Program-made: the position numbers and the translations under genes
Origin: Candidatus Omnitrophota bacterium
GTDB lineage: Bacteria > Omnitrophota > Gorgyraeia > Pluralincolimonadales > Pluralincolimonadaceae
Assembly (NCBI GenBank): GCA_003141835.1
Contig: PLNR01000002.1
Coordinates: forward strand, 78,026 to 142,025
DNA: 64,000 nt
Direction: 5' to 3'
Notes under the pieces: model-generated
The model's database searches: none
The model's input: only the letters and a program-made list of their open reading frames with translations
What the model was told of the DNA's origin: nothing
Shown: one piece after another, positions 5,171 to 45,058 of the stretch
Layout of the letters: every line of letters begins with the position of its first letter
Numbering within the stretch: the first letter of the stretch is position 1

Positions 5171-5256
5171 GAAACCCTCCGGGCAACAAAATTGCCTGTC
5201 CCCGGCTCTTTGCCGAAAACAGGCAGAATATACTTTTTCTTATGGTTACAGCTCAT
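5167..5256 (-). CDS. Putative 29-aa pyr leader peptide (upstream ORF), translationally coupled to pyrR.
   Basis: Strong SD AAAAGGAGAGGAAG directly before ATG (5254-5256). Translation is [29 protein letters not shown]. The TGA stop overlaps the pyrR ATG (ATGA). The ORF encloses the terminator hairpin listed next. Confidence 0.4.
   Translation of the reverse strand: MSCNHKKKYILPVFGKEPGTGNFVARRVS
5185..5225 (-). terminator. Intrinsic terminator or attenuator hairpin in the pyrR leader.
   Basis: mRNA UGCCUGUUUUCGGC-AAAGA-GCCGGGGACAGGCA forms a 14-bp stem (7 bp + 3 G.U + 4 bp) with a 5-nt loop. AUUUUGUU follows immediately. It ends about 10 nt before the pyrR SD. Confidence 0.45.
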
Positions 5257-5361
5257 CTTCCTCTCCTTTTCCGGCCTCACTGGGCCAGATTAAAAGGTTA
5301 CTAAAAGTAAAATATATCATGCGGCCGCCTTATTGTCAAGGGCTAATTTCAGGCGGGGCGC

Positions 5362-7461
5362 CTACGGAGCATACCCTAACGAATCCGTAGGTATCGAATT
5401 AAAGAACTTCGAGACGACCTCGAACCCGGGCTTTGGCCTCCTGTCCCATGTCAGGATCCCCCAATACTCTTCGATATTCGGGTCCTGGACCGAGGGGTTG
5501 CCGCCCTTCCACCATTCATCCGTCCATTCAAATATCACTATGCCGGCCAGGTCCGTGCCGATGCTCTCTATCTGGGCCTTCAGGGCCTTGTCCTGGGTCT
5601 CTTTCTTGACGAAAGTGCTGTATCCGGTCTCGGTTATTAAAATGGGCTTATTGTATTTCTTTGATATCCCATTCATCTCTTTCACGGTGCCTATCGCGTC
5701 GTTTTTACCGCGCCAGTTGAAGCCGTGGCCGCCGATATAGGCGTTGCAGCCGATAACGTCGAGGAAATCGAACCCGAGGTCGAATCCCTTTACCTTGAGT
5801 ATGTTCGCTGCGGTCACCGGATGGCTTTTGTCCGCGGCCTTTACCGCGAGATATATATCTTTCATGAAATTATTTACCTTGTCGAAACCGTAGCGCGGCA
5901 CCGGGTTCCCCGGCTCGTCGTAACAGAACGGCGCGTCATTCCAGATGCTCCACATGAGTATGCAGCGCCTGTTCCTGTGTCTTTTCACGACGTCCAAGGC
6001 CATCTTCTTAAGGGCTTTGAGCTCGACATCGGACGAATAATCCGTGTAGGCGGAGGGATATATGACCTGCTCTATTATCTTTAAATTATACTTCTCTGCC
6101 AGGTCAAGCAGGGCATCGGGAAGGGGCTCGTAGGTCCTTATCGTGTTTACCCCGGCCTCCTTCATCATCCTGAAATCATTCTCGAAGACCGATAGGGGTA
6201 TTTTAGAGAAGCAACCGTCGACTCCCGGAGGCAACCCCGGGGCGCTTATCCCGTAGGCCACGCCCTTTATGAAAAATAACGTACCGTCGGCGTATATCCT
6301 GTTGCCCTTCACCACCACGCCGCGTTCCGGTATCTTCCTTGACACAAGGACTTCGGGCTCACCCGGCCTCTTTTCGACTATCACCTTCCCGGCTTTCTCC
6401 CTTTCGGCGGCCCGCTGCCTTTCCACTTCTTTCTGCTTTTCCACCTCTTTGGCGCGCTCTTCGAGGCGGATGCGCTCTTTCGCGAGCTCTGCGATCTCCT
6501 CGTCTGAAGGCGTCTCCATGGAAGATATCTGGGGACGCTTAAGCGTTATGACGCCTGTGGGCACCTCTACCCTCACTGAATCCGCCGTCTCGAGGATGAC
6601 TTTACCTACGACAACACCGCCGGCCGCGAGGGTGACCTTTACCGGCTTGGAAGCCCTTATCTCGGCCAGGACCTGAAGCTGCCCTTCGAGCGCTTTCTTG
6701 CCTTTGGCGACCTTCGAGAGCTCCTTATTGAGCTCTTCGGACCTGCCCTTCGCCGCAGCCAGCTCGGCTTCCAGTTTCGCTATCTCCTCGGGTTTAGCCT
6801 GGGCCTCGGCTTTCGCCGCCTCAAGCTTCTTCTCCAGGTCGGCCCTGTTTTGTTCGAATTCCTTGAATTTTATCTCGAGCTCGTCGCGGCTGGCCCTGAG
6901 CTCTTCGAGCGATGCGCTCAATTTCGAGCGTTCGGCCTCTATGATCGCGATCTTCTTCTCCGCTTCCTTCCGCAGCGCCTCTTTCTTTACCACCTCGACC
7001 CCGGTCACGGCGATAGTTGCTACCAAAATAATCATAACAGCAACTGCGATGACCGGCCTGAGCTGCAGCAGGTTGGCGTAATTTACTATGCTCTTTCTTT
7101 CTTTTTCGGATATCCGTTCGTAATAAATACCGATAAGGTATTTATTGGGGCGGCCTTCTACCGTCTTCTTGAGCCACGCAGCCTCAGCGACCGCGGCGAT
7201 CGGTTTGGCGGAGAACGGCATGTTGATCTGCAGGCGGAGTTTGGCGGATTTTTTGTTCAGTTTTTCGGCGAGGTCGTCTTTGAGGTTGTTGACCTCGAGG
7301 CACATGCCGCCTTCGCTGACGTCCCTTGTGAAGGCCTGGTGGAACTCGGAGTATATCTCTTTTTCGTCGAGGCTGACTATCTCGAACTCGACGGGGAAGA
7401 CTGTGCTAAGCCTTATATATCTTCTGCGCTCGATTCCGCCACTGTTTTGCGGTGTTTGCAT
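5362..7461 (-). CDS. PilZ-domain / transmembrane / coiled-coil / glycoside hydrolase (GH-A clan TIM barrel) fusion protein.
   Basis: N-terminal RxxxR (RRRYIRL) and DxSxGG (DVSEGGMCL) PilZ motifs. One TM helix (PVIAVAVMIILVATIAVTGV). About 200 aa of A/E/K-rich heptad coiled coil. C-terminal TIM-barrel hydrolase signatures (GVNTIRTY, MWSIWNDAPF, ILITETGY nucleophile-Glu context). Confidence 0.7.
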   Translation of the reverse strand: MQTPQNSGGIERRRYIRLSTVFPVEFEIVSLDEKEIYSEFHQAFTRDVSEGGMCLEVNNLKDDLAEKLNKKSAKLRLQINMPFSAKPIAAVAEAAWLKKTVEGRPNKYLIGIYYERISEKERKSIVNYANLLQLRPVIAVAVMIILVATIAVTGVEVVKKEALRKEAEKKIAIIEAERSKLSASLEELRASRDELEIKFKEFEQNRADLEKKLEAAKAEAQAKPEEIAKLEAELAAAKGRSEELNKELSKVAKGKKALEGQLQVLAEIRASKPVKVTLAAGGVVVGKVILETADSVRVEVPTGVITLKRPQISSMETPSDEEIAELAKERIRLEERAKEVEKQKEVERQRAAEREKAGKVIVEKRPGEPEVLVSRKIPERGVVVKGNRIYADGTLFFIKGVAYGISAPGLPPGVDGCFSKIPLSVFENDFRMMKEAGVNTIRTYEPLPDALLDLAEKYNLKIIEQVIYPSAYTDYSSDVELKALKKMALDVVKRHRNRRCILMWSIWNDAPFCYDEPGNPVPRYGFDKVNNFMKDIYLAVKAADKSHPVTAANILKVKGFDLGFDFLDVIGCNAYIGGHGFNWRGKNDAIGTVKEMNGISKKYNKPILITETGYSTFVKKETQDKALKAQIESIGTDLAGIVIFEWTDEWWKGGNPSVQDPNIEEYWGILTWDRRPKPGFEVVSKFFNSIPTDSLGYAP

Positions 7462-8228
7462 ATCCCTCTTTCCGATCGCTTGACGAATTCGACCATGTGC
7501 GCGGCTTCAGGCGCCAATTTCTCAAATTTGGATATTTCGGCCAACGCCTGCGAGACGTTAAGGCCGGAGCGGTAAAGCAGCCTGTATATCTTCTTGATCT
7601 GCGCCTTAGCGTCTTCGCCTAAAGTCGAGCGTTTCAGGCCGACGACATTCAACGAGCATGCTTCGGAATCGCCTTCGATAAGCGTGTAAGGCACGACGTC
7701 CTTGTTCACGCGCGCCAGCCCGCCTATCATTGCGAGCGTCCCGATCCTGACGAACTGGTGCAGTGTGACGTTACCGGAGATAAAAGCCGAGTCCTCGACC
7801 TCTATGTGCCCGGCGACGAGCGCGCCGTTGCATAATACTATATTATTCCCTATACGGCAGTCATGCGCGACGTGCGAGAACCCCATGAAGAAATTATCGT
7901 TCCCTATAACGGTCGCCGAGCCTTCCTCCAGCCCGCGGTGTATGCTCGTGTATTCCCTGAATATGTTCCTGTCGCCTATCTTAAGGAAGCTCTTGCCGCC
8001 TTTGAAATGCAGGTGCTGCGGCACATGGCCGATCACCGCGCCCATATGCACTTCGCAGTCCTTTCCGATCGTCGTCCCGGAACAGATATACGCGTGCGCG
8101 AGCACTATTGTGCCGCTGCCTATCGAGGCGCCGTCCTCGATAATAGCGTACGGCCCGACCTCAACTTCACCCAATTCGGCCTTTTTCCCCACGATAGCCG
8201 TGGGATGTATCTTAGCCACTCTCGCCAC
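7413..8228 (-). CDS. lpxA: UDP-N-acetylglucosamine O-acyltransferase.
   Basis: Left-handed beta-helix hexapeptide repeats throughout. An LpxA-like C-terminal helical domain. 271 aa. The stop lies 49 nt inside the start of the upstream PilZ-GH ORF. Confidence 0.8.
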   Translation of the reverse strand: MARVAKIHPTAIVGKKAELGEVEVGPYAIIEDGASIGSGTIVLAHAYICSGTTIGKDCEVHMGAVIGHVPQHLHFKGGKSFLKIGDRNIFREYTSIHRGLEEGSATVIGNDNFFMGFSHVAHDCRIGNNIVLCNGALVAGHIEVEDSAFISGNVTLHQFVRIGTLAMIGGLARVNKDVVPYTLIEGDSEACSLNVVGLKRSTLGEDAKAQIKKIYRLLYRSGLNVSQALAEISKFEKLAPEAAHMVEFVKRSERGICKHRKTVAESSAEDI

Positions 8229-8904
8229 CTCTTTTGGGATTAAGCACGACCAGGAATTCGCCCTTCGGTTTCGACTTTTCGAAGCGCACGGCTATCTCGC
8301 TCACCTTCCCGCGCAATACCTCCTCGAATTTCTTCGTCAATTCCCGCATGACGCAGATCCTGATATCGCCGAATACCTCAAGTATATCATATAAAGCCCT
8401 CAAAATCCTGTGCGGGGACTCATAAAATACGACGGTCCGTTTCTCGTCCTTGAATTCCGACAATTTATTCTTCCGCGCACCTGACTTGTTCGGCAGGAAT
8501 CCCTCAAAAATAAAACGGTCCGTAGGCATGCCCGATGTTATGAGGCCGAGGATGATAGCGGCCGGGCCGGGTATCCCGACGACGGTTATCCCCTCTTTTA
8601 TCGCGAGCGCTATTATGTGCGCCCCTGGGTCGGATATGCCCGGAGTCCCGGCGTCCGAGACGAGGGCTATATTCTTCCCTTCCTTCAGTAGCTTTATAAG
8701 GTGATCGCCTTTTGTTATCCTGTTGTGTTCGAAATAGCTGGTGAGCGGGACTTTAATGCCGTAGTGTTCAGTGAGTATCTTTGTGTGGCGGGTATCTTCG
8801 GCGGCGATGAGGTCGGCTTCCTTTAATATCTCGACCGCCCGGATAGTTATATCCTTAAGGTTGCCTATAGGCGTGGCGACTACATAGAGCGTTCCGGATG
8901 GCAT
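8212..8904 (-). CDS. rsmI: 16S rRNA (cytidine1402-2'-O)-methyltransferase.
   Basis: MPSGTLYVVATPIGNLKDIT...AEDTR... is the canonical RsmI tetrapyrrole-methylase-fold N-terminus. 230 aa. Confidence 0.85.
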   Translation of the reverse strand: MPSGTLYVVATPIGNLKDITIRAVEILKEADLIAAEDTRHTKILTEHYGIKVPLTSYFEHNRITKGDHLIKLLKEGKNIALVSDAGTPGISDPGAHIIALAIKEGITVVGIPGPAAIILGLITSGMPTDRFIFEGFLPNKSGARKNKLSEFKDEKRTVVFYESPHRILRALYDILEVFGDIRICVMRELTKKFEEVLRGKVSEIAVRFEKSKPKGEFLVVLNPKRGGESG

Positions 8905-8906
8905 TT

Positions 8907-10736
8907 TTATTCGACCGTAACTGACTTTGCAAGGTTCCTGGGCTGGTCCACGTCCCTTCCCTTCAAAACGGCGATATAATAGGCCAGCAGCTGGAGCGGC
9001 ACGACCGTCAAAAGGACCGAGAGCATCTCTTCGGTCTCGGGTACATACAAGACCGAGCTGACGTGTTTCTTTATCGAGACGTCACCCTCAGTGGCTATGG
9101 CGATTATCGCGCCGTGCCGCGCGCGGATCTCCTGTATATTGGATATCATCTTGTCGTAAGTGAGCGACCGCGGCGTGATGGCCACGACCGCCATGTTCCT
9201 GTCGATAAGAGCTATCGGCCCGTGCTTCATCTCGCCGGCGGCGTAACCCTCGGCGTGGATATACGATATCTCTTTAAGCTTCAGCGCCCCCTCGAAAGCG
9301 TTGGGATAATTCACCCCGCGGCCGATATACATAAAGCAGGGGAGCTTGTAATACTTTTTCGCGCAAGCCTTGATCGCCTCGGCCCCGTCGAGTATCCCGT
9401 CCATGTGTTCGGGGATCATTTCAAAGCTGTTCAGCACCGCCTTCAGCCGCTTTTTCGTCAACGCGCCGTTTATCCTGCCGAGATACAGCGCCAGCAGGAT
9501 AAAAGTCGCTATCTGCGCCGTATAGGCCTTGGTCGAGGCGACCCCGATCTCCGGGCCGGCGTGCGTATAGATGATGCCGTCGGATTCCCTGGCGATCGTC
9601 GAGCCGACCACGTTGCATATCGATATTACTTTTATGCCGTTCTTCTTCGCTTCGCGCAGCGCCGCGAGCGTATCCGCGGTCTCGCCGGATTGGCTCACCG
9701 CAATGAACAAACTCTTCTTCCCGTATACGGGGTCCCTGTACCTTAACTCGCTGGAGACGTCCACCCCTACCGGGATCCCGGCGAATTTCTCGATCAGGTA
9801 CTCGCCGACAAGGCCGGCATGATAAGCGGTCCCGCACGCCGAGATGACTATATTGTCGATATTCCGCAACTCGGAGACAGCAAGGTTTATACCGTCCATC
9901 TTTATCCGGCCTGCCGGGATATCGGCACGGCTTGACAATATCTTGTGGATGACCCGCGGCTGCTCGTAGATCTCCTTCAGCATGAAGTGCGCGTATCCGC
10001 CCTTTTCAGCCTGCGAGATGTCCCATTCGATATTGGTGGTCTTTTTATTTATCTTTTTCCCGTTAAGGTCGGTTATGGCGACCTTATCCCTCGTCAGGGT
10101 TATGACCTCCTGGTCGTCGACAAAGATCACCTTCCTGGTCCTGTCCATTATGGCCGGGCAGTCGGATGCGAGGAAATTCTCGCCGTCGCCCACCCCTACG
10201 ATGAGCGGGCTGCCGCACCGGGCCCCGACAAGCTTTTCAGGTTCATCCTTGTGTATCACCGCTATCGCGTATGAGCCTTTTGCGTCTTTCAGCGCGCGGC
10301 GGACCGCGTCCTCGAGGGTCCCTTTGTAATATTTTTCGATGAGATGGGGGAGTACTTCGGTGTCTGTATCCGAGATGAATTTATGGCCTTCTTTTTTGAG
10401 CTGGGCCTTGAGCTCTTCGCAGTTCTCTATTATCCCGTTGTGGACAAGCGCTATCGCCTTGCGGCAATCATAGTGGGGGTGGGCATTGATGTAGTTAGGG
10501 ACCCCGTGCGTCGCCCAACGCGTATGGGCGACCCCGGTAGTGCCGCTCAAGCGGGTCTTCTTGAGGCCCTCGTAGAGTTCTTTTATCTTGCCGGGCATCT
10601 TCAGGGTCTTTATCCTGCCCCGTTCAAGGACGGCGATGCCGGCCGAGTCATAGCCCCTGTACTCGAGCCTGGCCAGCCCTTTTATTAAAATAGGGGCGGC
10701 CTCATCCTTCCCTATATATCCGGTTATCCCGCACAT
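8907..10736 (-). CDS. glmS: Glutamine--fructose-6-phosphate aminotransferase (isomerising).
   Basis: N-terminal MCGITGYIG, where Cys2 is the Ntn glutaminase nucleophile. Two SIS domains. 609 aa, ending ...VTVE. Confidence 0.92.
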   Translation of the reverse strand: MCGITGYIGKDEAAPILIKGLARLEYRGYDSAGIAVLERGRIKTLKMPGKIKELYEGLKKTRLSGTTGVAHTRWATHGVPNYINAHPHYDCRKAIALVHNGIIENCEELKAQLKKEGHKFISDTDTEVLPHLIEKYYKGTLEDAVRRALKDAKGSYAIAVIHKDEPEKLVGARCGSPLIVGVGDGENFLASDCPAIMDRTRKVIFVDDQEVITLTRDKVAITDLNGKKINKKTTNIEWDISQAEKGGYAHFMLKEIYEQPRVIHKILSSRADIPAGRIKMDGINLAVSELRNIDNIVISACGTAYHAGLVGEYLIEKFAGIPVGVDVSSELRYRDPVYGKKSLFIAVSQSGETADTLAALREAKKNGIKVISICNVVGSTIARESDGIIYTHAGPEIGVASTKAYTAQIATFILLALYLGRINGALTKKRLKAVLNSFEMIPEHMDGILDGAEAIKACAKKYYKLPCFMYIGRGVNYPNAFEGALKLKEISYIHAEGYAAGEMKHGPIALIDRNMAVVAITPRSLTYDKMISNIQEIRARHGAIIAIATEGDVSIKKHVSSVLYVPETEEMLSVLLTVVPLQLLAYYIAVLKGRDVDQPRNLAKSVTVE

Positions 10737-10739: not shown

Positions 10740-11348
10740 TTAGTCGGTAGTGAGCCTTATCTCGTCCATATATAAAACGCCTTCTTTTGCATCTACGGTC
10801 ATGTCGTCAAAGGTGACGTCCAATTCCACGATATTGCTAAGATTTCCCATCGTCCCGGTCGCCAGGAATTTCTTCACAGGGATGGAGATCTTCTGCCAGT
10901 TATCGGTTATGCCTGTTACCCGGCAGGTCGCTCGCTGGCCGCTTGAGCTTGTCAGTGTTACGCTGAATTTCGTCGTAAAACCCTTGTCAGGGTCGCCCTT
11001 AATCAGGAAGGTCAGGTTTTTGTACGGCGCAAGATTCATCTTGTTGAGCATTATATAAATCCCGTTTAAGGCCGGCCCGTTCGTAGCTACGTCATATGTT
11101 ATCTTCGCGACATGCGTCGACCCCGTCCTCCCCATCACGCCGTAGACATCGATCGTTTCCATCGTGGTGCCTTGGCTGGAATCGAGGGGGTTGGAGGTCC
11201 ATGTCCCCATCTCAGTGCCCAAGTCGCTCTTCGTAGCGCTTTCGAAACTGGTTAAGAGAAGGTCGTCGGCAAAAACTTGAGCGTTGAAAATTAACGATAC
11301 CGACAGAAAAAGAAGTGCGGATAAGATCCTGGCTGTTCTGTTTCCCAT
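10740..11348 (-). CDS. Secreted hypothetical protein, predicted beta-sandwich and possibly CIA30/CBM11-like carbohydrate-binding.
   Basis: Start reassigned to MGNRTARILSALLFLSVSLIFNAQVFA (ATG 11346-11348, AGGAGG 8 nt upstream). The longer ORF would overlap tRNA-Glu. Signal peptide. The fold call comes from sequence composition only. Confidence 0.5.
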   Translation of the reverse strand: MGNRTARILSALLFLSVSLIFNAQVFADDLLLTSFESATKSDLGTEMGTWTSNPLDSSQGTTMETIDVYGVMGRTGSTHVAKITYDVATNGPALNGIYIMLNKMNLAPYKNLTFLIKGDPDKGFTTKFSVTLTSSSGQRATCRVTGITDNWQKISIPVKKFLATGTMGNLSNIVELDVTFDDMTVDAKEGVLYMDEIRLTTD

Positions 11349-11370
11349 TACAGGCCTCCTTTTTTTATTT

Positions 11371-11447
11371 TGGCGTCCCCACGGGGATTTGAACCCCGGT
11401 CGCAAGCTTGAAAAGCTCGTGTCCTGACCAGGCTAGACGATGGGGAC
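11371..11447 (-). tRNA. tRNA-Glu (anticodon UUC).
   Basis: Reverse complement is GTCCCCATCGTCTAGCCTGGTCAGGACACGAGCTTTTCAAGCTTGCGACCGGGGTTCAAATCCCCGTGGGGACGCCA. It has a cloverleaf with a 7-bp acceptor stem, a TTC anticodon in a 7-nt loop and an encoded CCA. The 3' end closely matches E. coli tRNA-Glu (GGGGACGCCA). Confidence 0.9.
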
Positions 11448-11461: not shown

Positions 11462-13915
11462 TTATTTCTTCTCCGCTTCGCCTTCGGCCTCTTCCACTTC
11501 CGCGACCGAGGCGATGGAGGATACCCTGTCTTTATCGTCGAGCTTTATGATCCTCACGCCCTGCGCGGCGCGTCCGGTCGACCGGATGTCCTTGACCGGG
11601 CAACGGACTATTACGCCCTTGCCGGTCATGATCATTATCTCGTCTTTTTCCGAAACGGTCTTGAGGGCGACGGCCTCGCCGTTCTTCGCGGTGACCCTGA
11701 TGTTTATGATGCCTTTGCCGCCGCGGCTCTGCGTCCTGTATTCCTTGAACTGCGACCTCTTGCCGAAACCTAACGAAGTGACGGTAAGTATCGTAGCTTC
11801 CGGGTCGGCGACAGACATCGCGATGACCTCGTCCTTTTTAGCGAGACTTATGCCTTTGACGCCTTTTGCCGAGCGCCCCATATCCCTGACCTGCGATTCC
11901 GGGAACCTTATCGCCTTGCCTTCCCTTGTGGCGAGCAGTATCTCTTTCTTCCCGTCGGTCATTTCGACGCCTATGAGCTCGTCGCCTTTTTCAAGCGTTA
12001 TCCCTATTATCCCGCCTTTGCGCGGGTGGCTATAGGCTTCCAGCGTGGTCTTCTTTATTATACCCTGCTTCGTCGCCATGACCAGGAAATTGCCTTCTTT
12101 ATATTCTTTTACCGGGATGAAGGCGCTCATCTTCTCGCCCTGCTGCATCTCGAGGAGATTGATGATGGCTTTCCCTCTCGCCTGGCGCCCGGCCTGCGGT
12201 ATATCGTAGACCTTAAGCCACAGGACGCGCCCCTGGTTGGAGAAGAATAATATGTGCTCGTGCGTGGTCGCAATGAAGAGGTGTTCGACGAAATCTTCCT
12301 CTTTCACGTCCGCTCCGGTCACGCCGTGGCCGCCGCGGCGCTGTTTCCTGTACGCCGAGACCGGCAGGCGCTTGATATACCCCGTATTGCTCACGGTTAT
12401 CACGACATCCTCTTCGGCAATAAGGTCCTCGACCTCGAGGTCCTCGACCTCGCCGACGACATCGGTCATCCTCTCGTCGCCGTATTTCTCTTTTATCTTC
12501 AGGACCTCTTCTTTTACTATCTGGTATACCTTCTTCTCGCTCTTTAATATGGACTCGTACAATTCTATCTTTTTTATGAGTTCGAGATATTCCGCCTCGA
12601 GCTTATCGCGTTCCAGGGCCGTCAACCTGCGCAGCTGCATCTCGAGTATCGCCTGGGCTTGGACGTCGCTGAAATCGAATTTCTTGATGAGGGCTTCTTT
12701 CGCCTCGGCCTCTGATTTGGATTTCTTTATGAGCTCTATTATCTTGTCGAGGTTCGCGAGCGCCTTCTTCAGGCCTTCGAGTATGTGCGCCCTCTCCTTG
12801 GCCCTTGCCAGGTCGAATTTAGTCCTGCGTATTACTATCTCTTTCCTGTGCGCTATGTAGCACTCAAGCATCTGCTTGAGGTTCAACACCTTCGGCCTGT
12901 TCTCCACAAGCGCCAGCATTATTATGCCGAACGATACCTCAAGCTGGGTGTGCTTATAGAGCTGGTTCAGTATCACCTGGGCGTTCGCGTCGCGCTTCAG
13001 CTCGATGACTACCCTCAGGCCGTCCTTATCCGACTCGTCGCGTATATCGGATATCCCCTCTATCTTCTTGTCGGTGACAAGCTGGGCGACCGCCTCTATC
13101 ATGTTCGCCTTGTTCACCTGGTATGGTATCTCGGTAATGATTATGGATTCTTTCCCTGATTTCTGCTCCTCTATCCCGGCCCTCGCGCGGATCTTTATCA
13201 GGCCCCGGCCCGTGGTATAGGCCTGTTTTATCCCCTCGCGGCCGCAGATTATGCCGCCCGTCGGGAAGTCAGGCGCCTTTATTATCTTCATCAGGTCTTT
13301 GATGGAGATCTCCGGGTCGTCTATCACAGCCGTGACGCCCTGCGATACTTCTGTAAGGTTATGCGGGGGAATATTCGTGGCCATGCCGACCGCGATACCC
13401 GACGACCCATTTATCAAAAGGTTCGGAAGCGTCGCCGGCAGCACAGTCGGTTCCTTGAGCGAGGCATCAAAGTTTGGTACGAATTCAACAGTATCTTTTT
13501 CGAGATCGGAAAGCATCTCCTCGGTTATGGCTGCCATGCGCGCCTCGGTGTATCTCATGGCCGCCGGCGAGTCGCCGTCCACGGAACCAAAGTTGCCCTG
13601 GCCTTCGGCCAGCGGGTACCTTAACGAGAAATCCTGGACCATCCTAACGAGCGAATCATAGACAGCCACGTCGCCGTGCGGATGGTATTTACCGAGGACC
13701 TCACCGACGATCCTCGCCGACTTCTTATAGGGCTTAGTATGCTCGAGCCCGAGTTCTTTCATCCCGTAGAGTATCCTGCGGTGTACCGGTTTAAGGCCGT
13801 CGCGCACGTCGGGCAGGGCGCGGCCTACGATAACGCTCATCGCGTATGAGATATAAGAATCTTTCATCTCGTCTTCGATATATACAGGGACTATCTTCTC
13901 ATTGCGCGCGTACAT
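11462..13915 (-). CDS. gyrA: DNA gyrase subunit A.
   Basis: 817 aa. Active-site region AAMRYTE, N-terminal ...[12 protein letters not shown]..., and C-terminal beta-pinwheel repeats. Confidence 0.95.
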
Positions 13916-13938
13916 ATTAGACCTATAATCCTCCTATC

Positions 13939-16395
<2,457 letters not shown>

Positions 16396-16695
16396 CTATA
16401 TCTCCCCTATCCTGAGTTTTATATCTTTGACCGGGCCCTCTCCCAGTTCGCTCTTTATTTTCGCCAGGATCCCGGCCTTCTCCATCGTCAATTTATGGAG
16501 CCAACTCGACGAGTCCACATGGACCACAAGGACCCCTTCTTTTATATCCACGGGCTTCGCGTGCTTTACCGAAGCTTCGCCCGCCGCTCTAGCCCACACT
16601 TCGCCGAGCATCCCAGCTTGCGAAACTTTCCCGCCGCCCAGGTTCTTCAGTATCCCGTCCAACACATCTTTAATGACGACGGGCCTATTCTTCAT
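16396..16695 (-). CDS. DUF721 (DciA-like) protein.
   Basis: 99 aa. Conserved W..A.G...A...P.....G.L.V.V.SS.W..L pattern. Canonical position between dnaN and gyrB. Confidence 0.6.
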   Translation of the reverse strand: MKNRPVVIKDVLDGILKNLGGGKVSQAGMLGEVWARAAGEASVKHAKPVDIKEGVLVVHVDSSSWLHKLTMEKAGILAKIKSELGEGPVKDIKLRIGEI

Positions 16696-16698
16696 CTG

Positions 16699-17799
16699 TT
16701 ATTCGGTGCGCACCGGCAGGACTATGTACACATAATCTCCGCCTTCCGCCCTTATCACGCCGCGCCTGTCCTGGCCGGCAAATTCAAAATCCACTTCCTC
16801 TTCGGATATGTTCTTAAGCGCGTCCATGAGGTAATTCGGGTTGAAGCCGATGGTGAATTCATCTCCGGAATATTCGCAATCAACCTCTTCGCGCGACTCG
16901 CTGCCGTCCTGCGACGCCTTGGATATTATGGCCCTGTTCTTCAGCAGGTCCAGTTTGATCGACTGTGAATCCGGTGTCGCGAGCAAACTCGCCCTTTTTA
17001 CCGCCGCATAAAAATTATCCCTGTTAACCTTCATCTTATCCTGGCCCTGCTTCGGGATAACCTGTTCATAATTGGGGTATTCGCCTTCTATTAACCTTGT
17101 TATGAGCTGCGAATCGTCCAGCTCGAAGGCAACCTGGTTCTCGCTAAACAATATCTTTACGTCGCCGTCGTCCTTTAATATCCTCTGCAGCTCGTTGACC
17201 GCCTTAGACGGGACGATGATCCTTTTTGTGAACCCGGGAGGTTTCGGCGTCTCTTTCTCTACCATCGCGAGCCTTCTCCCGTCGGTAGCTACGACGCGCA
17301 ATTTCTTGTCTGATAGGACGAACAGGACCCCGTTAAGGATGTACCTGGTCTCGTCCTTGGATATCGCGAATGCCGTAGAATTTAAGATAGACTTTAACTG
17401 CCTTTGCGGCATGGCCAGTGTGTCTTTATCTGACAGCTCGGGGACCTTCGGGAACTCGTCTTTCGGCAGCCCCATTATTTTAAATATCGATTTATCGCAT
17501 TTTATCGTGACCTGGTTATTCTTTTTGGCGGAAAGGCTTATTTCTTTATTTGGGAGCTCTTTCACTATATCGCTTATTTTTTTCGCTGGGATGGATATCG
17601 AACCTTCCTCCTGGACGTCGACCCCGCTTATTTTTGATATCACCCCTATTTCAAGATCCGTGGCTATGAGCCTCATTTTGTCTTTCGACGCTTCGAACAA
17701 TATATTAGATAAGATGGGCAATCCGCTTTTTTGCGATACCGCGTTTTGCACAGTCTGTATCCCTCTCTGTAGTATCTCCCGGGTCAACTTAACTTCCAT
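16699..17799 (-). CDS. dnaN: DNA polymerase III beta sliding clamp.
   Basis: 366 aa, three-domain clamp. N-terminus MEVKLTREILQRGIQTVQNAVSQKS... Confidence 0.9.
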   Translation of the reverse strand: MEVKLTREILQRGIQTVQNAVSQKSGLPILSNILFEASKDKMRLIATDLEIGVISKISGVDVQEEGSISIPAKKISDIVKELPNKEISLSAKKNNQVTIKCDKSIFKIMGLPKDEFPKVPELSDKDTLAMPQRQLKSILNSTAFAISKDETRYILNGVLFVLSDKKLRVVATDGRRLAMVEKETPKPPGFTKRIIVPSKAVNELQRILKDDGDVKILFSENQVAFELDDSQLITRLIEGEYPNYEQVIPKQGQDKMKVNRDNFYAAVKRASLLATPDSQSIKLDLLKNRAIISKASQDGSESREEVDCEYSGDEFTIGFNPNYLMDALKNISEEEVDFEFAGQDRRGVIRAEGGDYVYIVLPVRTE

Positions 17800-17839
17800 C
17801 TCTTCTCCTTCTTCTTATTTATTAATTAAAAATAGTAGT

Positions 17840-18050
17840 AGAAGTAGTAACGCCTGTTCATTTGTGAACAACAACACAACACCTTAACCAACGGCTAATT
17901 ATAGAAAAATCTCACCTAAAAGTTATGCACAGGTTGCTAACACAAAGCAGCGTTTCTTTTGAAATCCCGGCTCTAAGCCTGAGTTATGCACAATTACGAA
18001 CAGGTTATCCACAACAAAAGCAAAGCTAGTCAACAGGTTATTCACCCCTT
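17840..18050. promoter_or_regulatory. Probable oriC core: AT-rich unwinding element plus four co-oriented DnaA boxes.
   Basis: TTATGCACA at 17923-17931 and 17984-17992. Perfect TTATCCACA at 18005-18013. TTATTCACC at 18038-18046. AT-rich run ttattaattaaaaatagtagtagaagtag at 17815-17850. Palindrome TGTTCATTTGTGAACA at 17855-17870. Genes diverge from this point. Confidence 0.6.
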
Positions 18051-19399
18051 ATCTGGGTCATAAGCTTGTTTACCAGCTCTTTTATTTTAGCGTCTTTTTT
18101 CATGTCCGACTCTATGCTCTCGCAGGCGTGTAAAATAGTAGTGTGGTCCCTGTCCCCGCATAACTCACCTATTTCAGGCAGTGAGTGGTCGGTCAGTTTC
18201 CTTATGAGGTACATAGAGATCTGCCGCGGCACGACCATCTGCTTCGTCCTCCGCCTGCCTTTTATATCCGATACGCGCACGTTGAAATAACTCGCAACTT
18301 CCTCGAATATCGACTCTGCGAGTATCCGCGATTCCTTCTCTTTTACCATATCCTTCAGGACCGAGCGGGCCAGCTCAAGCGTGACGCTCTGCTTAAGGAG
18401 GACGGCGTTCGCGACGACTCGTTTCAACGCGCCTTCGAGCTCGCGTATATTGGACTTTATCTTTTCCCCTATATAGAAGATGACATCATCAGGGACGGCT
18501 ATGCTCTCCCTCTTTAATTTCTGGCGTAATATAGCTATCCTCGTCTCGAAATCCGGCTGGGATATTGAGACGATCAGGCCCCACTCAAACCTCGAGACGA
18601 GCCTCTCCTCAAGCCTGTCGATCTCCTTGGGCGGCTTGTCGCTGGAAAGGACTATCTGCTTATGCGCGTCGTGCAGGGTGTTAAAGGTGTGGAAGAACTC
18701 TTCCTGCGTCGACTCTTTCCCGGCGATGAAATGGACATCGTCTATTAGAAGGACGTCTACGGTCCTGTATCTTGCCCTGAACCTGTCCGTCGACCGGTTT
18801 TGTATGGATTGTATCAGCTGGTTCGTGAACTGCTCACTCGTTATGTAAACCACTTTCATGCCCGGGTTTTTCGCCGCGACGCAATGCCCGATGGCATTCA
18901 TCAGATGCGTCTTCCCCATACCCGCCTTCCCGTATATGAAGAGCGGGTTGTAGGCCTTTGCCGGGGATTCGGCGACGGCCATCGCGGCGGCATGCGCCAT
19001 CTTGTTGCTCGAGCCGATGACGAAATCATCGAAAGTGTAAGCCGGGTTAAGCCCGATATTATTCTGGGCTTCCTGCTTTTTCGGTGAATCCGCGGATCTT
19101 ACGGCGGCGCTGGCAGCGGCAGGCGGGACATAATCCGGCTCCCTGGCCGAATAACGGAAATCCAGCGCCAGGTTATCGCCGGCGACATCCTTGAGGGTGG
19201 ACCTGATCAAATCCAGGTGATGCTCAAGCAGCCAATCCTTAAAGAAGCTGTTAGGGACCTCGAGGACAAGACACCCTTTCGAGATCTCCAGCCCCTTTGT
19301 GGGCTTAAACCATGTCTCAAAAGTCTGGGGGTTTACCTTGGATTTAATGAGGTCCTTGGCTTTTTCCCAGACCTCGATGATATTCTTTATATTTTCCAT
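18038..19399 (-). CDS. dnaA: Chromosomal replication initiator protein DnaA.
   Basis: 453 aa. Walker [11 protein letters not shown], an AAA+ core and a C-terminal DNA-binding helix-turn-helix. Confidence 0.95.
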
Positions 19400-19416
19400 A
19401 AAAAGGCCGCAAAAAG

Positions 19417-19436
19417 TTATTCACAATTTATTCACA
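19417..19436. promoter_or_regulatory. Tandem DnaA boxes upstream of dnaA (autoregulation or second oriC module).
   Basis: TTATTCACA at 19417-19425 and again at 19428-19436 (TTATNCACA consensus). They are direct repeats 11 bp apart and sit 18-37 nt upstream of the dnaA start. Confidence 0.55.
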
Positions 19437-19512
19437 GGCCGCAACCGGGGCGGGCCGTGCCAAACCTTGATAAATTATAGCAAAGAGACCGTCCGGTTGC
19501 AAGAACTTTTTC

Positions 19513-19540
19513 TTGACTAAGCCGGCAATCGTGCTATAAT
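19513..19540 (+). promoter_or_regulatory. Sigma70-type promoter for the rpmH-rnpA-yidD-yidC operon.
   Basis: TTGACT (19513-19518), a 16-nt spacer, then TATAAT (19535-19540). It is 29 nt upstream of the rpmH ATG, which has SD AAAAGGAGAGG. Confidence 0.6.
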
Positions 19541-19568
19541 CGTCCTTTAACTTTAAAAGGAGAGGACA

Positions 19569-19706
19569 ATGAAGAAGAACATTACCCTAAAATCCAATTT
19601 AAAGAGGGTGCGCGCCCACGGGTTCAGGAAAAGGATGTCAACCGCGGACGGCAGAGCGATCTTAAGGAGAAGGCGCCAAAAAGGCAGAAAGCGCCTTATC
19701 CCCTAA
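19569..19706 (+). CDS. rpmH: 50S ribosomal protein L34.
   Basis: Not in the ORF track because it is under 60 aa. Translation [45 protein letters not shown] (45 aa) matches the L34 consensus ...KR.R.HGFR.RM.T..GR.VL.RRR.KGRK.L. Confidence 0.9.
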
Positions 19707-19720
19707 CCCTTCGGTTCCCC

Positions 19721-20077
19721 ATGAAGAGGTTCTCCCTTTCGCGTTCCGAGAGGATAACCAAGACAACTGATTTTAAGCGGATATTCAAAACCGCCCAATT
19801 TTATAACGGGAAAGCCTTAAAACTCGGCGTCTCGCGCAACGACCTCGGCGTCTCGAGGATAGGCGTTTCGCTGCGCAAGCACGTATTCAAGCTTGCCGTT
19901 TCCCGCAATAGGCTTCGCAGGTGCGTCAAGGAGATCTTCAGGTTAAGCAAAGAAAAACTGGTAAAAGGCTGCGATCTCATAGTTATCCCGAGGGCCGCGG
20001 CCGCTGGTTTAAAATACGAAGAATTGAGTTCAGGGTTCCTGGCATTAGCAAAGAAAGCAGGCGTCACCAAGGATTAA
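19721..20077 (+). CDS. rnpA: Ribonuclease P protein component.
   Basis: 118 aa, basic. RNR-like motif region (KLAVSRNRLRRCVKEIFR). Immediately downstream of rpmH. Confidence 0.85.
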   Translation: MKRFSLSRSERITKTTDFKRIFKTAQFYNGKALKLGVSRNDLGVSRIGVSLRKHVFKLAVSRNRLRRCVKEIFRLSKEKLVKGCDLIVIPRAAAAGLKYEELSSGFLALAKKAGVTKD

Positions 20078-20290
20078 ATGGCCAAAAATTTTTTAGTATC
20101 CCTGATTAAATTTTATCGTAACTTCTTGTCTGGGTATAAGTTACAATGTTGCAGATATTATCCCTCCTGTTCGGAATACGCGGCTGAAGCGATAGAAAAG
20201 AAGGGCATCTTCAAAGGCATCCTTCTTTCATCTTTCAGGATATTAAGGTGCAACCCATTATCTAAAGGCGGATACGATCCGGTAAAATAA
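20078..20290 (+). CDS. yidD: Membrane protein insertion efficiency factor YidD.
   Basis: 70 aa with CxxxC...C...GG.DP ([20 protein letters not shown]...GGYDPV). Adjacent to yidC. Confidence 0.85.
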
Positions 20291-20291
20291 T

Positions 20292-21956
20292 ATGAATATG
20301 GAAAAACGCGCGTTATTGGCTATCGTCATATCAATGGCAATACTGTTGTTGTCCCAGCCGCTCATGGTCAAATACTTCCCACAGAAGAAAACAGTGGTTG
20401 CGACATCCGCCGCAACCACTAAAACGGTCCAAGGCCCGGCAGTGGTTGCGAATACTGCCACAACCGCCACTTCGCAAACGCAAAAGGCAGGATCGCCGGC
20501 CCAGGCAGTCAAGCTAGCCGACGAAAAAGACATTATTTTCGAGAACGAAGAGTATCGCGCAGTCCTTTCGAACGCAGGCGGCGTCATTAAAAAGGCCTTT
20601 CTCAAAAAGCACCCCGGTTCAGACGGCAAGCCGATGGTATTATTTGACGAATCGAACCCGTCCGACGCCACATTTGCAGTGTCCGGGCTCGAACCCGCCA
20701 TCGACAACGCCGTATTTTCTTACTCGACGCGCCCGAACGGGATTCTCTTTACCGCTAAGTCGCCCGACGGGATAAGCATAGAGAAAGAGATAACCTTCCG
20801 GCCGGGAAGCTACGCTATAAACCTGCGGCAGACGCTTACTAACTATTCCGGCCAGTCTCGGAACCTTAAATATTCGATCGTCAACGGAGCCGGCTTGACG
20901 AACCTTTCGCCGCAGGACGAGACATACGATGAGCTCGTCAAGGAGATCGACGGCAAGATAACCAACGTGAACAAGAGGTCGCTCAAAAAACCGGCTACAT
21001 GGGACGGCATGCAGGTTAATTGGGTCTCGCTGAAAGCCAAATATTTTTCCTTAATAACAAAACCCCCGGTCTCTTTCAAAATAGTTTCTTCTAACACATT
21101 GCAAGACAAGAACTTACAATCAAAAATAAGCTCGGATAGTTTCACCGTAGCCCCTAATTCCTCGGTGACCCATGAATTCGTCTTATACGCCGGGCCGAAC
21201 GAATATAAGAAAATCAGCAGCCTGAAACTGGATTTTGAGGATTCCCTCTACCTGGGCTTTACAGGAAGCATAGGCCGCATATTATTCGTTATTTTGGAAC
21301 ATATCCAAAAGTTGGCAAAAAACTGGGGCCTTTCAATAATATTGCTTACAGTTTTTATAAATATATTGCTCTTCCCGCTCACGTTCAAAGGCATAAAATC
21401 GATGAAGCAGATGCAGGCGCTCCAGCCGAAGATGGAGGCGTTGCGCAAGGCGCATAAAAAGGATCCCCAGAAGCTCAACAAAGAGATAATGGAGCTATAT
21501 AAGAAATATAAGGTAAACCCGGTGAGCGGCTGCCTGCCCATGATATTGCAGATGCCGGTATTCTTCGCCTTATACCAGGTCCTTATGAGGTCGATAGAGC
21601 TAAGAGGCGCATCGTTCCTATGGATAAAAGACCTTTCGCAGCCGGATAGATTGATCGTGTTTAAAACTCCTATCTTATTGATAGGAAACGAGTTCAACAT
21701 TTTACCCATCTTAATGGCGATCGGAATGTTCTTCCAGCAGAAGATGTCTACACCCACCCATTCAGGGGCTGACGACCAGATGGTCCAACAGCAGAAGATG
21801 ATGATGATCATGATGCCCATCCTTTTCGGGTTCATGTTCTATCACCTCCCCTCCGGCCTCGTAATGTATTGGCTTACCAATACGGTCTTGACCGTAGCCG
21901 AGCAGGAGATATTCCTCAAAAAGCAATTGTTCCACGTGGAACAATCGGAGAGTTAG
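20292..21956 (+). CDS. yidC: Membrane protein insertase YidC.
   Basis: 554 aa. N-terminal TM anchor, large periplasmic P1 domain, and the C-terminal 5-TM 60 kDa IMP domain (GCLPMILQMPVFFALYQVL). Confidence 0.9.
   Translation: MNMEKRALLAIVISMAILLLSQPLMVKYFPQKKTVVATSAATTKTVQGPAVVANTATTATSQTQKAGSPAQAVKLADEKDIIFENEEYRAVLSNAGGVIKKAFLKKHPGSDGKPMVLFDESNPSDATFAVSGLEPAIDNAVFSYSTRPNGILFTAKSPDGISIEKEITFRPGSYAINLRQTLTNYSGQSRNLKYSIVNGAGLTNLSPQDETYDELVKEIDGKITNVNKRSLKKPATWDGMQVNWVSLKAKYFSLITKPPVSFKIVSSNTLQDKNLQSKISSDSFTVAPNSSVTHEFVLYAGPNEYKKISSLKLDFEDSLYLGFTGSIGRILFVILEHIQKLAKNWGLSIILLTVFINILLFPLTFKGIKSMKQMQALQPKMEALRKAHKKDPQKLNKEIMELYKKYKVNPVSGCLPMILQMPVFFALYQVLMRSIELRGASFLWIKDLSQPDRLIVFKTPILLIGNEFNILPILMAIGMFFQQKMSTPTHSGADDQMVQQQKMMMIMMPILFGFMFYHLPSGLVMYWLTNTVLTVAEQEIFLKKQLFHVEQSES
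21928..21943. promoter_or_regulatory. parS centromere-like site 1.
   Basis: TGTTCCACGTGGAACA is a perfect 16-bp palindrome and a variant of the parS consensus tGTTNCACGTGAAACa. The palindrome extends to 20 bp (ATTGTTCCACGTGGAACAAT). It lies in the last codons of yidC. Confidence 0.7.
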
Positions 21957-21963
21957 AAGGTTT

Positions 21964-22167
21964 ATGAAGTCCATAGAAGCTGAAGGAAAGACCACGAAAG
22001 AAGCTATCCACCTGGCGCTGCAAAAGCTGGGGGTTGCCCGGGACAAGGTCCAGGTCAAGATCCTGTCCGAAGGCCATCGCGGCCTCTTTGGCATGGAAGG
22101 CCTGAAAATGGCCAAAGTCAAGGTAACCTTAAAGGAAGAAACTCACCAGGCACACCGCAAAGCTTAA
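21964..22167 (+). CDS. Jag/KhpB N-terminal-domain-only protein.
   Basis: 67 aa with the Jag_N signature ([34 protein letters not shown]). It lacks the KH and R3H domains of full-length Jag. Confidence 0.6.
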
Positions 22168-22183
22168 TCCGGAAGTACCCAAA

Positions 22184-23944
22184 ATGCCCGAAATTCCTTA
22201 TTCTAACGACTATGATGTCATTGTGGTAGGCGGAGGCCACGCCGGCTGCGAAGCTGCCCTCTGCACGGCCAGGATGGGCTTAAAATGCCTGCTTCTGACC
22301 ATGGACCCTGCTACGATAGCCCAGATGTCCTGCAACCCGGCCATAGGCGGGCTTGCCAAGGGCCACATAGTCCGGGAGATCGATGCTCTTGGCGGCGAGA
22401 TGGCAAAAGTGACCGATAAGACCGGGATCCAGTTCCGGCTCCTTAATACTAAAAAAGGCCCGGCTGTCCAGGCGCCCCGCGCACAAGCAGACAAGAAGCT
22501 TTATCAGTCCGCCATGAGGAAAGTCATCGAAGCCCAGGATGGCCTTGACCTGAAGCAGGAAGTTGCTGAGGAGATCATTACTGAAAACGGGAAAGCCGCA
22601 GGCGTTCTCTGCCAGTCAGGCGCGCGGTATGGCGCCAAAGCCGTTATCATTACGACAGGCACATTCCTGAACGGGTTGATACACATCGGCATGACGACTT
22701 TCCCGGCAGGCAGAATCGGGGAACCGCCGGCGGTCAAATTATCGTACTCTTTACGCTCGTTAGGCTTTGAAATAAAAAGGCTTAAGACCGGAACCCCGGC
22801 CAGGCTAAAGAAAGGATCTATAGACTTCACAAAGACAGAGATCCAGGACGGCGATCCGGAGCCGACGCCCTTCTCGTTCTCAACCGAAAAAATAGAGCAG
22901 CAGCAGGTCCCTTGCTATATCACTTATACAAATAAAGAAACCCATAAATATATCCTGGATAACCTTGACCGCTCGCCGCTTTACAGCGGAAAGATCAAAG
23001 GGATCGGTCCGCGTTATTGCCCGTCAATTGAAGACAAGGTCGTAAGATTTAAGGACAAAGAGCGCCACCAGATCTTTCTTGAGCCTGAAGGGCTTGGTTC
23101 CGATGAGATATATCCTAACGGAGTGTCTACGAGCCTTCCAGAGGATGTCCAATTATATATGTTAAGGACTATCAAAGGATTAGAACATTGTGAAGTTTCC
23201 CGATTTGGCTATGCCATCGAATACGACTTCTGCCCGCCAACCCAGCTTAAACCAACGCTTGAGACAAAGCTCGTGGGAGGCCTTTATTTTGCCGGCCAGA
23301 TCAACGGAACTTCCGGTTACGAAGAAGCCGCCGGCCAGGGCCTAGCCGCCGGGATAAACGCCGCATTGAAGATCAAAGGCAATGAGCCTTTTATCCTTAA
23401 ACGGTCGGAGGCGTATATAGGTGTTTTAATTGATGACCTGGTGACCAAGGGAACAAACGAGCCGTACCGGATGTTCACTTCCCGCGCCGAATACAGGCTC
23501 CTGTTAAGGCACGACAACGCAGACTTAAGGCTTATGGGATATGGCCATGAGTTGGGCCTTATCCCGGAAGCGCAATATAACGCCCTGATCGAGAAGAAGA
23601 AAATGATCGAAACCGGAGTCACCGCCTTAAAACGTAAACGCCCGGATGAGATATCCTCGTATCCGGCGGAGGCCAGGAAACAGGCCGAGATCGAGGTCAA
23701 ATACGAAGGATATATCCAGCGGCAGGTCCGGGAGGCCGAAAAGTTAAAGAAGTTGGAGCAGGTCACGATCCCGCCGACTATAGATTTCAAGGATGTCAGG
23801 GGCCTGCGGATAGAAGCACGGGAAAAGCTCGACAAGATAAAGCCCAACTCTGTCGGCCAGGCCTCGAGGATATCAGGCATTTCTCCGTGCGACATATCAC
23901 TTCTTTACGTCTACATAGAAGCCCTTCATAAAAGAAAATCTTGA
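22184..23944 (+). CDS. mnmG: tRNA uridine-5-carboxymethylaminomethyl modification enzyme MnmG/GidA.
   Basis: 586 aa. FAD-binding [10 protein letters not shown] at the N-terminus and MnmG family blocks throughout. Confidence 0.9.
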
Positions 23945-23967
23945 CAAAAAATCCGTCTCTGTTAGAA

Positions 23968-23983
23968 TGTTCCACGTGGAACA
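23968..23983. promoter_or_regulatory. parS centromere-like site 2.
   Basis: Identical TGTTCCACGTGGAACA, directly abutting the parA start codon at 23984. Confidence 0.7.
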
Positions 23984-45052: not shown

Positions 45053-45058
45053 GAAGAT

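Follow-up and report, generated by a model that had tools for sequence, protein, structure and literature searches.

A PilZ domain joined across a predicted membrane helix to a GH2-like glycosidase barrel in a Candidatus Omnitrophota genome

The 64,000-nucleotide stretch of a Candidatus Omnitrophota genome analysed here (contig PLNR01000002.1, positions 78,026 to 142,025 of the forward strand; hereafter the window) carries a gene whose product combines a PilZ domain, the receptor type associated with cyclic di-guanosine monophosphate (c-di-GMP), with a glycoside hydrolase (GH) domain in one polypeptide. This gene, hereafter the target, is a single minus-strand open reading frame (ORF) that occupies exactly 5362-7461, from the ATG at 7461 to the TAG at 5364-5362. 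A search of ∼5.8 billion proteins returned 51 full-length homologues with 35-98% identity, which indicates that the gene is genuine. An earlier note, made from the sequence alone, had read the order PilZ, one transmembrane helix, coiled coil and (beta/alpha)8 (TIM) barrel of clan GH-A, and this order proved correct by Pfam, hydropathy and an AlphaFold2 (AF2) model (mean predicted local distance difference test score, pLDDT, 77.9) comprising a PilZ barrel, helices 119-218 and 224-270, a beta domain and the TIM barrel. The features are listed in Table 1; residue counts out of 48 given below refer to an alignment of 48 full-length homologues, the anchored family.

Table 1. Coordinates in the window of the target gene, its predicted domains and motifs, and two adjoining features
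Feature	Residues	Position	Strand	Basis
Complete ORF, PilZ-transmembrane helix-stalk-beta domain-linker-GH-A TIM barrel	1-699	5362..7461	-	699 aa plus stop
PilZ domain	11-128	7078..7431	-	Pfam PF07238; family profile against PDB; AF2 secondary structure
RxxxR motif (R-R-Y-I-R)	13-17	7411..7425	-	R13 and R17 invariant in 48 homologues
DxSxxG motif (D-V-S-E-G-G)	47-52	7306..7323	-	Alignment of 48 homologues
Single transmembrane helix	137-160	6982..7053	-	Hydropathy; AF2 helix 119-218; positive-inside bias
Periplasmic heptad stalk (predicted)	161-270	6652..6981	-	Heptad periodicity; hydrophobic a/d positions; length conservation
Small beta domain (46 aa)	273-318	6508..6645	-	AF2 strands 274-316; P0061 alignment from 276
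Helix and low-confidence Lys/Glu-rich linker	320-351; 352-380	6322..6504	-	AF2; family lengths
(beta/alpha)8 glycosidase domain	381-699	5365..6321	-	PF02836; PDB profile; Foldseek
Asp509 codon, acid/base position (W-N-D-A-P)	509	5935..5937	-	Alignments; distant homologues and solved relatives have Glu
Glu611 codon, predicted catalytic nucleophile (I-T-E-T-G)	611	5629..5631	-	Alignments
lpxA, upstream gene, 3' end overlaps target start by 49 nt		7413..8228	-	Part of the glmS-rsmI-lpxA-X unit
Sigma-70-like promoter, TTGACA-17 nt-TATATT with TG		5311..5339	-	11/12 hexamer matches; directly after target stop, upstream of pyrR

Architecture of the predicted protein

The N-terminal domain matches the PilZ model over profile positions 1-99 of 102 with 28.0 bits, above the gathering score of 22.5, and the N-terminal family profile retrieves from the PDB the Bacillus c-di-GMP receptor MotI/YpfA (B. 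subtilis, PDB 5vx6, E=4.6e-4) with both motifs aligned. In the AF2 model a barrel spans residues 23-116 (strands 23-30, 36-49, 52-58, 73-79, 88-101 and 107-116; pLDDT ∼80-89) and a C-terminal helix begins at residue 119. Conservation of the motifs is high: the two arginines of RxxxR, invariant in the anchored family, are also invariant in 13 relatives that share the N-terminal scaffold described below, position 47 is Asp in 35 and Asn in 13 of the 48 sequences, Ser49 is kept in 36, and Gly52 is present in all. Both motifs named in the earlier note are thus present, conserved and not degenerate in a profile alignment. With a score above threshold, RxxxR, (D/N)xSxxG and a six-stranded barrel followed by a helix, the domain has the features of a canonical PilZ domain and looks like a c-di-GMP receptor, binding itself being predicted.

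It could still be that the PilZ domain takes no part in c-di-GMP signalling and serves as a cytoplasmic anchor, folding or interaction module, so that the protein would simply be a membrane-tethered digestive glycanase. A comprehensive survey of PilZ domains records that some do not bind c-di-GMP, the two scores given above are modest, Ser49 is replaced in 12 of 48 homologues, and a regular-expression scan of all six frames of the window and of six gene-called related loci (L001-L006) found no GGDEF motif. However, the arginine pair and Gly52 are invariant, and Asp or Asn stands at position 47 in all 48 sequences, down to 35% identity. PilZ domains that do not bind usually lose their motifs, whereas fused ones are reported to keep binding, the survey noting that PilZ domains within fusion proteins retain their binding motifs. 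GGDEF domains also exist in Omnitrophota, where a preprint on giant genes describes them together with pilZ genes beside sugar transporters and glycosyl hydrolases. We therefore regard a PilZ domain that has left signalling behind as distinctly unlikely.

The only hydrophobic segment of the protein is that of residues 137-160 (Kyte-Doolittle 2.86), in keeping with the single membrane helix of the earlier note. Its 15-residue flanks carry a mean net charge of +5.1 on the N side and +0.8 on the C side, and the N side is the more positive in 48/48 sequences. The C-terminal PilZ helix, the transmembrane helix and the first stalk helix are modelled by AF2 as one unbroken helix, which a second model from the family repeats at residues 122-225. 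A second line of evidence on topology comes from shorter paralogues (∼340-560 aa), numerous in Omnitrophota, that start with a signal peptide and continue with the small beta domain, linker and TIM barrel of the target; one of them, P0061, aligns with target residues 276-698 at 47% identity (BLASTP). Because these signal-peptide paralogues share it, the part of the target after residue 272 would be an exported cassette. Charge bias and paralogues together are indicators of a topology with PilZ in the cytoplasm and the glycosidase in the periplasm, as the earlier note had supposed, and the adjoining lpxA indicates a diderm envelope.

Between membrane and enzyme, the note had described a coiled coil of roughly 200 residues. 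The heptads are real, with a power at 3.5 residues of 46 against 11 ± 11 in shuffled sequences (p ∼0.014) and hydrophobic a/d positions, but the coiled coil is shorter than was claimed, since the region resolves into two stalk helices, a beta domain, a further helix and a linker. The stalk proper (∼110 aa) is made of helices 161-218 and 224-270; the break between them (219-223) is poorly conserved, but the heptad frame of the target runs through it unbroken. Stalks measure 108-112 aa in one clade and 123 aa in a second (a single one reaches 147 aa), although their identity drops to as little as 16%. In the clade at 38-40% identity to the target (clade 2), 7 + 4 residues are inserted and the break is rich in Gly, Ser and Thr. 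The two helices could therefore either run on in parallel as one extended coiled coil of ∼16 nm or fold back on each other into a hairpin of ∼8 nm, like that of membrane-fusion proteins. The small beta domain that follows gave only noise-level SH3-like and Sm-like matches in a Pfam scan, and no family; from the alignments it is taken as the first domain of the exported cassette common to the signal-peptide paralogues. Across the family, linkers of 38 to 97 aa lead to the enzyme.

The glycosidase barrel and its acid/base position

Residues 423-616 match PF02836 (Glyco_hydro_2_C) with 33.6 bits, above the gathering score of 21, and the family profile reaches GH2 structures, in agreement with the GH assignment of the earlier note. 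As a single sequence the target finds PDB entry 9fz9 (E=8e-14); the family profile finds GH2 beta-glucuronidase TIM barrels and 9fz9 equally well (E ∼6e-20), with GH158 next (6e-10); and Foldseek aligns the modelled barrel at E ∼1e-16 with a root-mean-square deviation of ∼4 Å over ∼340 columns. The best sequence and fold matches to the domain are 9fz9/9g5g/9g4n (537 aa, named 'Glycoside hydrolase family 2 catalytic domain-containing protein'), for which no paper turned up in literature searches by PDB code or topic, and GH2 beta-glucuronidases (6u7j, 1bhg). These relatives share the NTIR, N-[ED], TE-x-GYS and D-x-WWKGG motifs with the target but have N-E at the acid/base position, and the GH2 enzymes add N-terminal sugar-binding and Ig-like domains. 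In the target no match to the accessory-domain families PF02837 or PF00703 was found, and the PilZ domain, membrane helix, stalk and 46-aa beta domain precede the barrel. Because the accessory domains are absent we treat the domain as a GH2-like member of clan GH-A, not as a bona fide GH2 enzyme, its TIM barrel being akin to the catalytic domains of GH2. Membership of GH72 or GH17, suggested by precomputed PF03198 labels and by a Joint Genome Institute (JGI) 'GH17' name, was rejected after the profile search of the PDB: PF03198 matches occur in some homologues only, cover ∼65 N-terminal residues and score 16-28 bits, around threshold, and the 60 best PDB matches listed for the family profile include no structure of GH72 or GH17.

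The two motifs that the earlier note had taken as a GH-A-like catalytic context, WNDAP and ITETG, lie where it had placed them and align with GH2 catalytic motifs. In alignments to human beta-glucuronidase (1bhg) and 9fz9, WNDAP falls opposite the N-E motif ('WSVANE' and 'VINEP', respectively) and ITETG opposite the conserved Glu of 'IQSEYG' / 'TTEFGYS', positions that we take, from general knowledge of GH2, to be the acid/base and the nucleophile. The domain thus shows the hallmarks of clan GH-A, i.e. a (beta/alpha)8 fold with the nucleophile Glu on strand 7 and, on strand 4, an Asn followed by a carboxylate, here Asp and not Glu, so that the Asn-Glu pair of GH2 is replaced by Asn508-Asp509.

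The substitution, which the earlier note had spotted as ND in place of NE, is confirmed by alignment and fixed in the lineage. Asp occupies the position in 47/48 anchored homologues and in all 38 aligned paralogues that lack the PilZ-transmembrane-stalk part, and WND[AM]P is found in 42/42 aligned sequences of the Omnitrophota clade. All 15 aligned distant homologues (25-28% identity; those named are from Carboxylicivirga and Myxococcota) have GNE instead, as does 9fz9. Glu611 is kept in 47/48 sequences, and Arg442, Asn573/Tyr575 and a W646-D648-W650-K652 strand are likewise conserved. Since Asp is one nucleotide away from Glu, yet is retained down to 35% identity, the active site appears selected and adapted, and the change from Glu to Asp points to a selected variant, not to decay.

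These patterns bear directly on the suggestion of the earlier note that the barrel might have become a lectin-like binder, in which case the protein would be a c-di-GMP-dependent tether or anchor that links the inner membrane to a glycan of the periplasm or cell wall. The replacement of the acid/base Glu is what a dead carbohydrate binder might show, and a stalk whose length is kept at low identity would suit a spacer. However, the remainder of the GH-A catalytic set, including the nucleophile, is conserved; Asp is itself a carboxylate that a single nucleotide change would turn back to Glu and is nevertheless fixed; its flanking residues have shifted in step with it (from G-N-E to W-N-D-[AM]-P), as would be expected if the active site had adapted; and a sister fusion, described below, carries a GH16 domain with an intact ExDxxE motif. 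A lectin role is accordingly disfavoured, and we consider it very unlikely.

The scaffold family and the gene neighbourhood

Among 185,579 species genomes scanned, 39 loci were found, and all of them belong to Candidatus Omnitrophota or to related metagenome-assembled genomes of the Planctomycetes-Verrucomicrobia-Chlamydiae (PVC) group (some records are labelled 'Planctomycetia'), and the full-length PilZ form is present at ∼17 of the 39, the closest being 90% identical. Residues 1-320 searched against 1.84 billion representatives of 50% identity clusters gave 426 matches at E<=1e-3, 200 of them at E<=1e-10, which extend across PilZ domain, membrane helix and stalk; those that carry a name belong to Omnitrophota, Candidatus Theseobacter and a PVC-group bacterium. 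If unspecific labels ('bacterium' and the like) are set aside, all organism names obtained for the scaffold proteins and loci are those of Omnitrophota or of other PVC lineages.

The domains that follow this scaffold are diverse: GH2-like, GH16, GH144, GH26, GH42-like and (alpha/alpha)6, as well as tetratricopeptide repeat (TPR) or unassigned domains. The commonest partner, found in 52 cluster representatives (among them proteins P0052-P0055, P0123-P0126 and P0128), is an (alpha/alpha)6 domain of ∼370 aa without a Pfam family; its AF2 model (pLDDT 84) resembles in Foldseek glycosidases, GH76 mannanases and sugar epimerases (including 2-epimerases) with TM-scores of 0.6-0.7, normalised by target length, and its sequence profile matches GH76 weakly (E=0.003). 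The GH144 group is related to endo-beta-1,2-glucanases (E=1e-48 to 5gzh, 9e-70 to XCC2207), and a scaffold group matching DUF3131 clusters with it. A further case lies at the orthologous glmS-rsmI-lpxA locus of another Omnitrophota genome (L006:6444-8309; ENA ERZ27254756, contig k141_2000689), where the protein is 70% identical to the target over residues 1-385 and then continues as a GH16 laminarinase with an intact EIDIME, which matches solved laminarinases at E=3e-44. It is a clean swap of the catalytic domain, with the breakpoint at the start of the enzyme domain. The target is therefore not a one-off but one member of a scaffold family that carries at least six kinds of carbohydrate-active domain. 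A 16-bit EmrA-adaptor match in one scaffold relative is likely coiled-coil noise.

In the target's own locus the order glmS-rsmI-lpxA-X-pyrR-pyrB-pyrC, X being the PilZ-glycosidase gene, is kept in at least 12 genomes, and the gene lies ∼12 kb from dnaA. Because the pyrR promoter follows immediately after its stop, the target should be the last gene of the glmS-rsmI-lpxA transcription unit. It evolves faster (64-90% identity) than its neighbours (pyrB 87-98%). In this unit (window 7413-10736, minus strand) lpxA stands alone, without lpxC, fabZ or lpxD, an arrangement kept in at least 12 Omnitrophota genomes. Just before the start of pyrR, a 14-bp stem and T-run at 5225-5193 resembles a PyrR-type attenuator (leader 5193-5339, minus strand); Rfam at gathering threshold returned three tRNAs and no PyrR element.

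Other branches of the family are found elsewhere. A 47%-identical relative sits between tilS and ftsH, with a GAF-HD gene nearby, and clade 2 occupies a carbohydrate locus (L002:1-18876 and L004:1-18768) with an MFS_2 transporter, two ABC permeases, a TPR protein, a beta-propeller protein, a GlgC-like nucleotidyltransferase, a GH42 enzyme and two further GH2_C-like proteins, one of which has an N-terminal hydrophobic leader and a G-N-E motif. In addition, a 1025-aa protein of this locus matches the structure of a GH161 phosphorylase (PDB 9qqk, E=1e-222); GH161 enzymes are beta-1,3-glucan phosphorylases; they phosphorolyse beta-1,3-gluco-oligosaccharides, and their genes usually share catabolic loci with those of transporters. 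A giant gene (>3094 aa, running off the locus; L004:19099-22238) with Peptidase_S8 and Fervidolysin-like repeats abuts the carbohydrate cluster.

These contexts speak to the proposal of the earlier note that the enzyme degrades or processes exopolysaccharide. It would then trim or degrade the cell's own polymer, like BcsZ, PslG, AlgL or PelA, and the PilZ fusion would be a means of c-di-GMP control within a synthase or export machine. Such machines are classically controlled by c-di-GMP and PilZ, and Alg44 has the same PilZ-transmembrane-periplasmic layout; the target is co-oriented with glmS and overlaps lpxA, both envelope-precursor genes, and a large cluster of glycosyltransferase and radical S-adenosylmethionine (SAM) genes for a possible envelope glycan lies ∼20 kb away in the window. 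Yet no processive synthase, Wzx/Wzy, OPX/PCP or export gene adjoins the target in the window or in loci L001-L006, so that the synthase-associated setting of BcsZ, PslG or AlgL is not seen: the neighbours are glmS, rsmI, lpxA and pyrR-pyrB-pyrC here, and tilS/ftsH or transporters with GH161 in other clades. Synteny with rsmI and the pyr genes is of a housekeeping kind, the uptake transporters and cytoplasmic phosphorylase of clade 2 form a catabolic layout, and numerous free secreted paralogues of the cassette are typical of degradative enzymes. A role in an exopolysaccharide operon was rejected on gene context, and trimming of the cell's own exopolysaccharide is, in our estimate, unlikely.

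The remainder of the window holds several further features. The neighbourhood of the replication origin (11462-25643) comprises a minus-strand group of gyrA, gyrB, dnaN and dnaA and, after it, a plus-strand group of yidC, mnmG, parA and parB, and GC and AT skew switch sign at ∼19-22 kb. Between gyrA and glmS, a conserved 221-aa ORF without a family (10740-11447, minus strand) has 44-61% identity in syntenic loci; its true start is probably further downstream because the listed 5' end overlaps a tRNA (11374-11447) by ∼30 nt. Two other ORFs, at 25583-27187 (minus strand, 534 aa) and 34053-36095 (plus strand, 680 aa), have no Pfam match at E<=1e-5. The long co-directional radical-SAM-rich cluster mentioned above (27261-54682, plus strand) includes at least four proteins with B12-binding domains, one methyltransferase fusion and several SPASM proteins. 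These are interleaved with two family 2 glycosyltransferases (GT2), an NAD-epimerase, a GT9 heptosyltransferase-like gene and E1 dehydrogenase subunits, and two tandem DUF2079 membrane proteins are found at 43187-46924. This region looks like an unusual locus for envelope-glycan or lipid modification.

A proposed function and its relation to known systems

Full-text literature searches found no published fusion of PilZ to a glycoside hydrolase or glucanase, in line with the expectation of the earlier note that such a fusion lies outside the usual PilZ partners, and the scaffold family is apparently undescribed. The PilZ survey makes no mention of hydrolase fusions. The Omnitrophota preprint reports small pilZ genes, GGDEF, sugar transporters and glycosyl hydrolases in one neighbourhood, for which a role in predation is proposed, and does not describe a PilZ-glycosidase fusion.

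The nearest functional analogue is Alg44, the alginate co-polymerase of Pseudomonas aeruginosa, which likewise has a cytoplasmic N-terminal PilZ domain, a single transmembrane helix and a periplasmic domain, and in which bound intracellular c-di-GMP is needed for a polysaccharide process outside the membrane. The periplasmic part of Alg44 is HlyD-like, of the membrane-fusion-protein kind, contains no enzyme and works with a polymerase, whereas the target ends in a glycosidase, has no HlyD-family match in Pfam or NCBIfam and has no Alg8-like polymerase gene adjacent. The earlier note had counted Alg44 among glycosyltransferase fusions, which it is not. In the Bcs system a PilZ receptor (BcsA) and a periplasmic glycoside hydrolase (BcsZ) also serve one polysaccharide system, but there the PilZ domain is C-terminal on the glycosyltransferase and the GH8 enzyme BcsZ is a separate secreted protein, while the target is one polypeptide with no synthase nearby. 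In LapD/LapG, the paradigm of inside-out c-di-GMP signalling, a membrane protein uses its cytoplasmic c-di-GMP receptor domain to set whether a hydrolytic activity is available in the periplasm, as would be the case here; LapD, however, has a degenerate EAL domain and a HAMP relay, and its periplasmic domain sequesters a protease that is a separate protein, whereas the target lacks HAMP and EAL and carries the enzyme itself. PslG (GH39) and plant KORRIGAN (GH9) are type-II anchored, with a cytoplasmic N-terminus, one transmembrane helix and an extracytoplasmic glycosidase like the target; unlike it, they have neither a second-messenger receptor domain nor a long coiled-coil stalk. The signal-peptide paralogues (e.g. 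P0057-P0072) have the same beta domain, linker and W-N-D barrel (47-58% identity over 276-698) with a cleavable signal peptide in place of PilZ, membrane helix and stalk, and are hence free and untethered.

The best explanation of the target, which we hold with moderate confidence, is a c-di-GMP-linked, membrane-tethered periplasmic glycanase that probably acts on beta-1,3-glucan. It would be a bitopic inner-membrane protein with the PilZ domain directly beneath the membrane in the cytoplasm, where c-di-GMP would bind at the RxxxR and DxSxxG site and, via the rigid helix, may change dimerisation of the tether, helix packing or partner binding. The stalk would hold the exported cassette of beta domain, helix, flexible linker and glycosidase, which elsewhere in the phylum appears to be a free secreted enzyme. 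The enzyme itself is predicted to be a retaining-type glycosidase, presumably competent in catalysis, with Glu611 as nucleophile and the lineage-fixed Asp509 at the acid/base position, and most likely cleaves or transglycosylates a periplasmic beta-glucan. That this is probably a beta-1,3-glucan, a substrate assignment from context in which we have moderate confidence, is suggested by the GH16 laminarinase swap at the orthologous locus and by the GH161 neighbour in clade 2. Given that stalk and barrel are joined by a flexible connection whose length differs among relatives, positional control is likelier than allosteric gating of the active site. The linker of 38-97 aa thus argues against rigid allostery, by which the earlier note would have had c-di-GMP act directly across the membrane, and what c-di-GMP probably governs is assembly, partner binding, position, clustering or retention of the tethered enzyme.

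Several observations weigh against this explanation. The nearest sequence relatives whose activity is known are beta-glucuronidases and not glucanases; the scaffold also carries GH144, GH26, GH42-like and (alpha/alpha)6 domains, so that the substrate may differ after a domain swap; and a GH42 enzyme shares the clade-2 locus with the GH161 phosphorylase. Clan GH-A enzymes usually become less active when their acid/base Glu is replaced by Asp, and the loop after Asp509 is poorly modelled (AF2 pLDDT <50 at 515-517). To these can be added the two possible geometries of the stalk, the housekeeping nature of the target's own neighbours, and the result of the GGDEF scan.

Seen across the whole family, the PilZ-transmembrane-stalk part could be a plug-and-play actuator of Omnitrophota and related PVC bacteria, coupling the level of c-di-GMP to the activity, clustering or release of interchangeable periplasmic glycanases, a generalization that we put forward tentatively and regard as possible but doubtful. 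If true, a second messenger known for its role in polysaccharide synthesis would switch periplasmic glycan catabolism, such enzymes could digest host, prey or environmental beta-glucans in bacteria that are putatively host-dependent nanobacteria, and the Asp fixed at the acid/base position in this lineage would set apart a branch of clan GH-A with a mechanism of its own.

The fixed change from Glu to Asp at a clan GH-A acid/base poses an enzymological question of its own. For signalling, c-di-GMP is known to control polysaccharide production via receptors on or next to synthases, and a transmembrane fusion of such a receptor to degrading enzymes would extend this logic to breakdown and join LapD and Alg44 as a third type of inside-out signalling by c-di-GMP. 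The scaffold recurs with at least six carbohydrate-active folds that are unrelated to one another, which suggests a solution both general and specific to the lineage of these uncultured and poorly understood bacteria.

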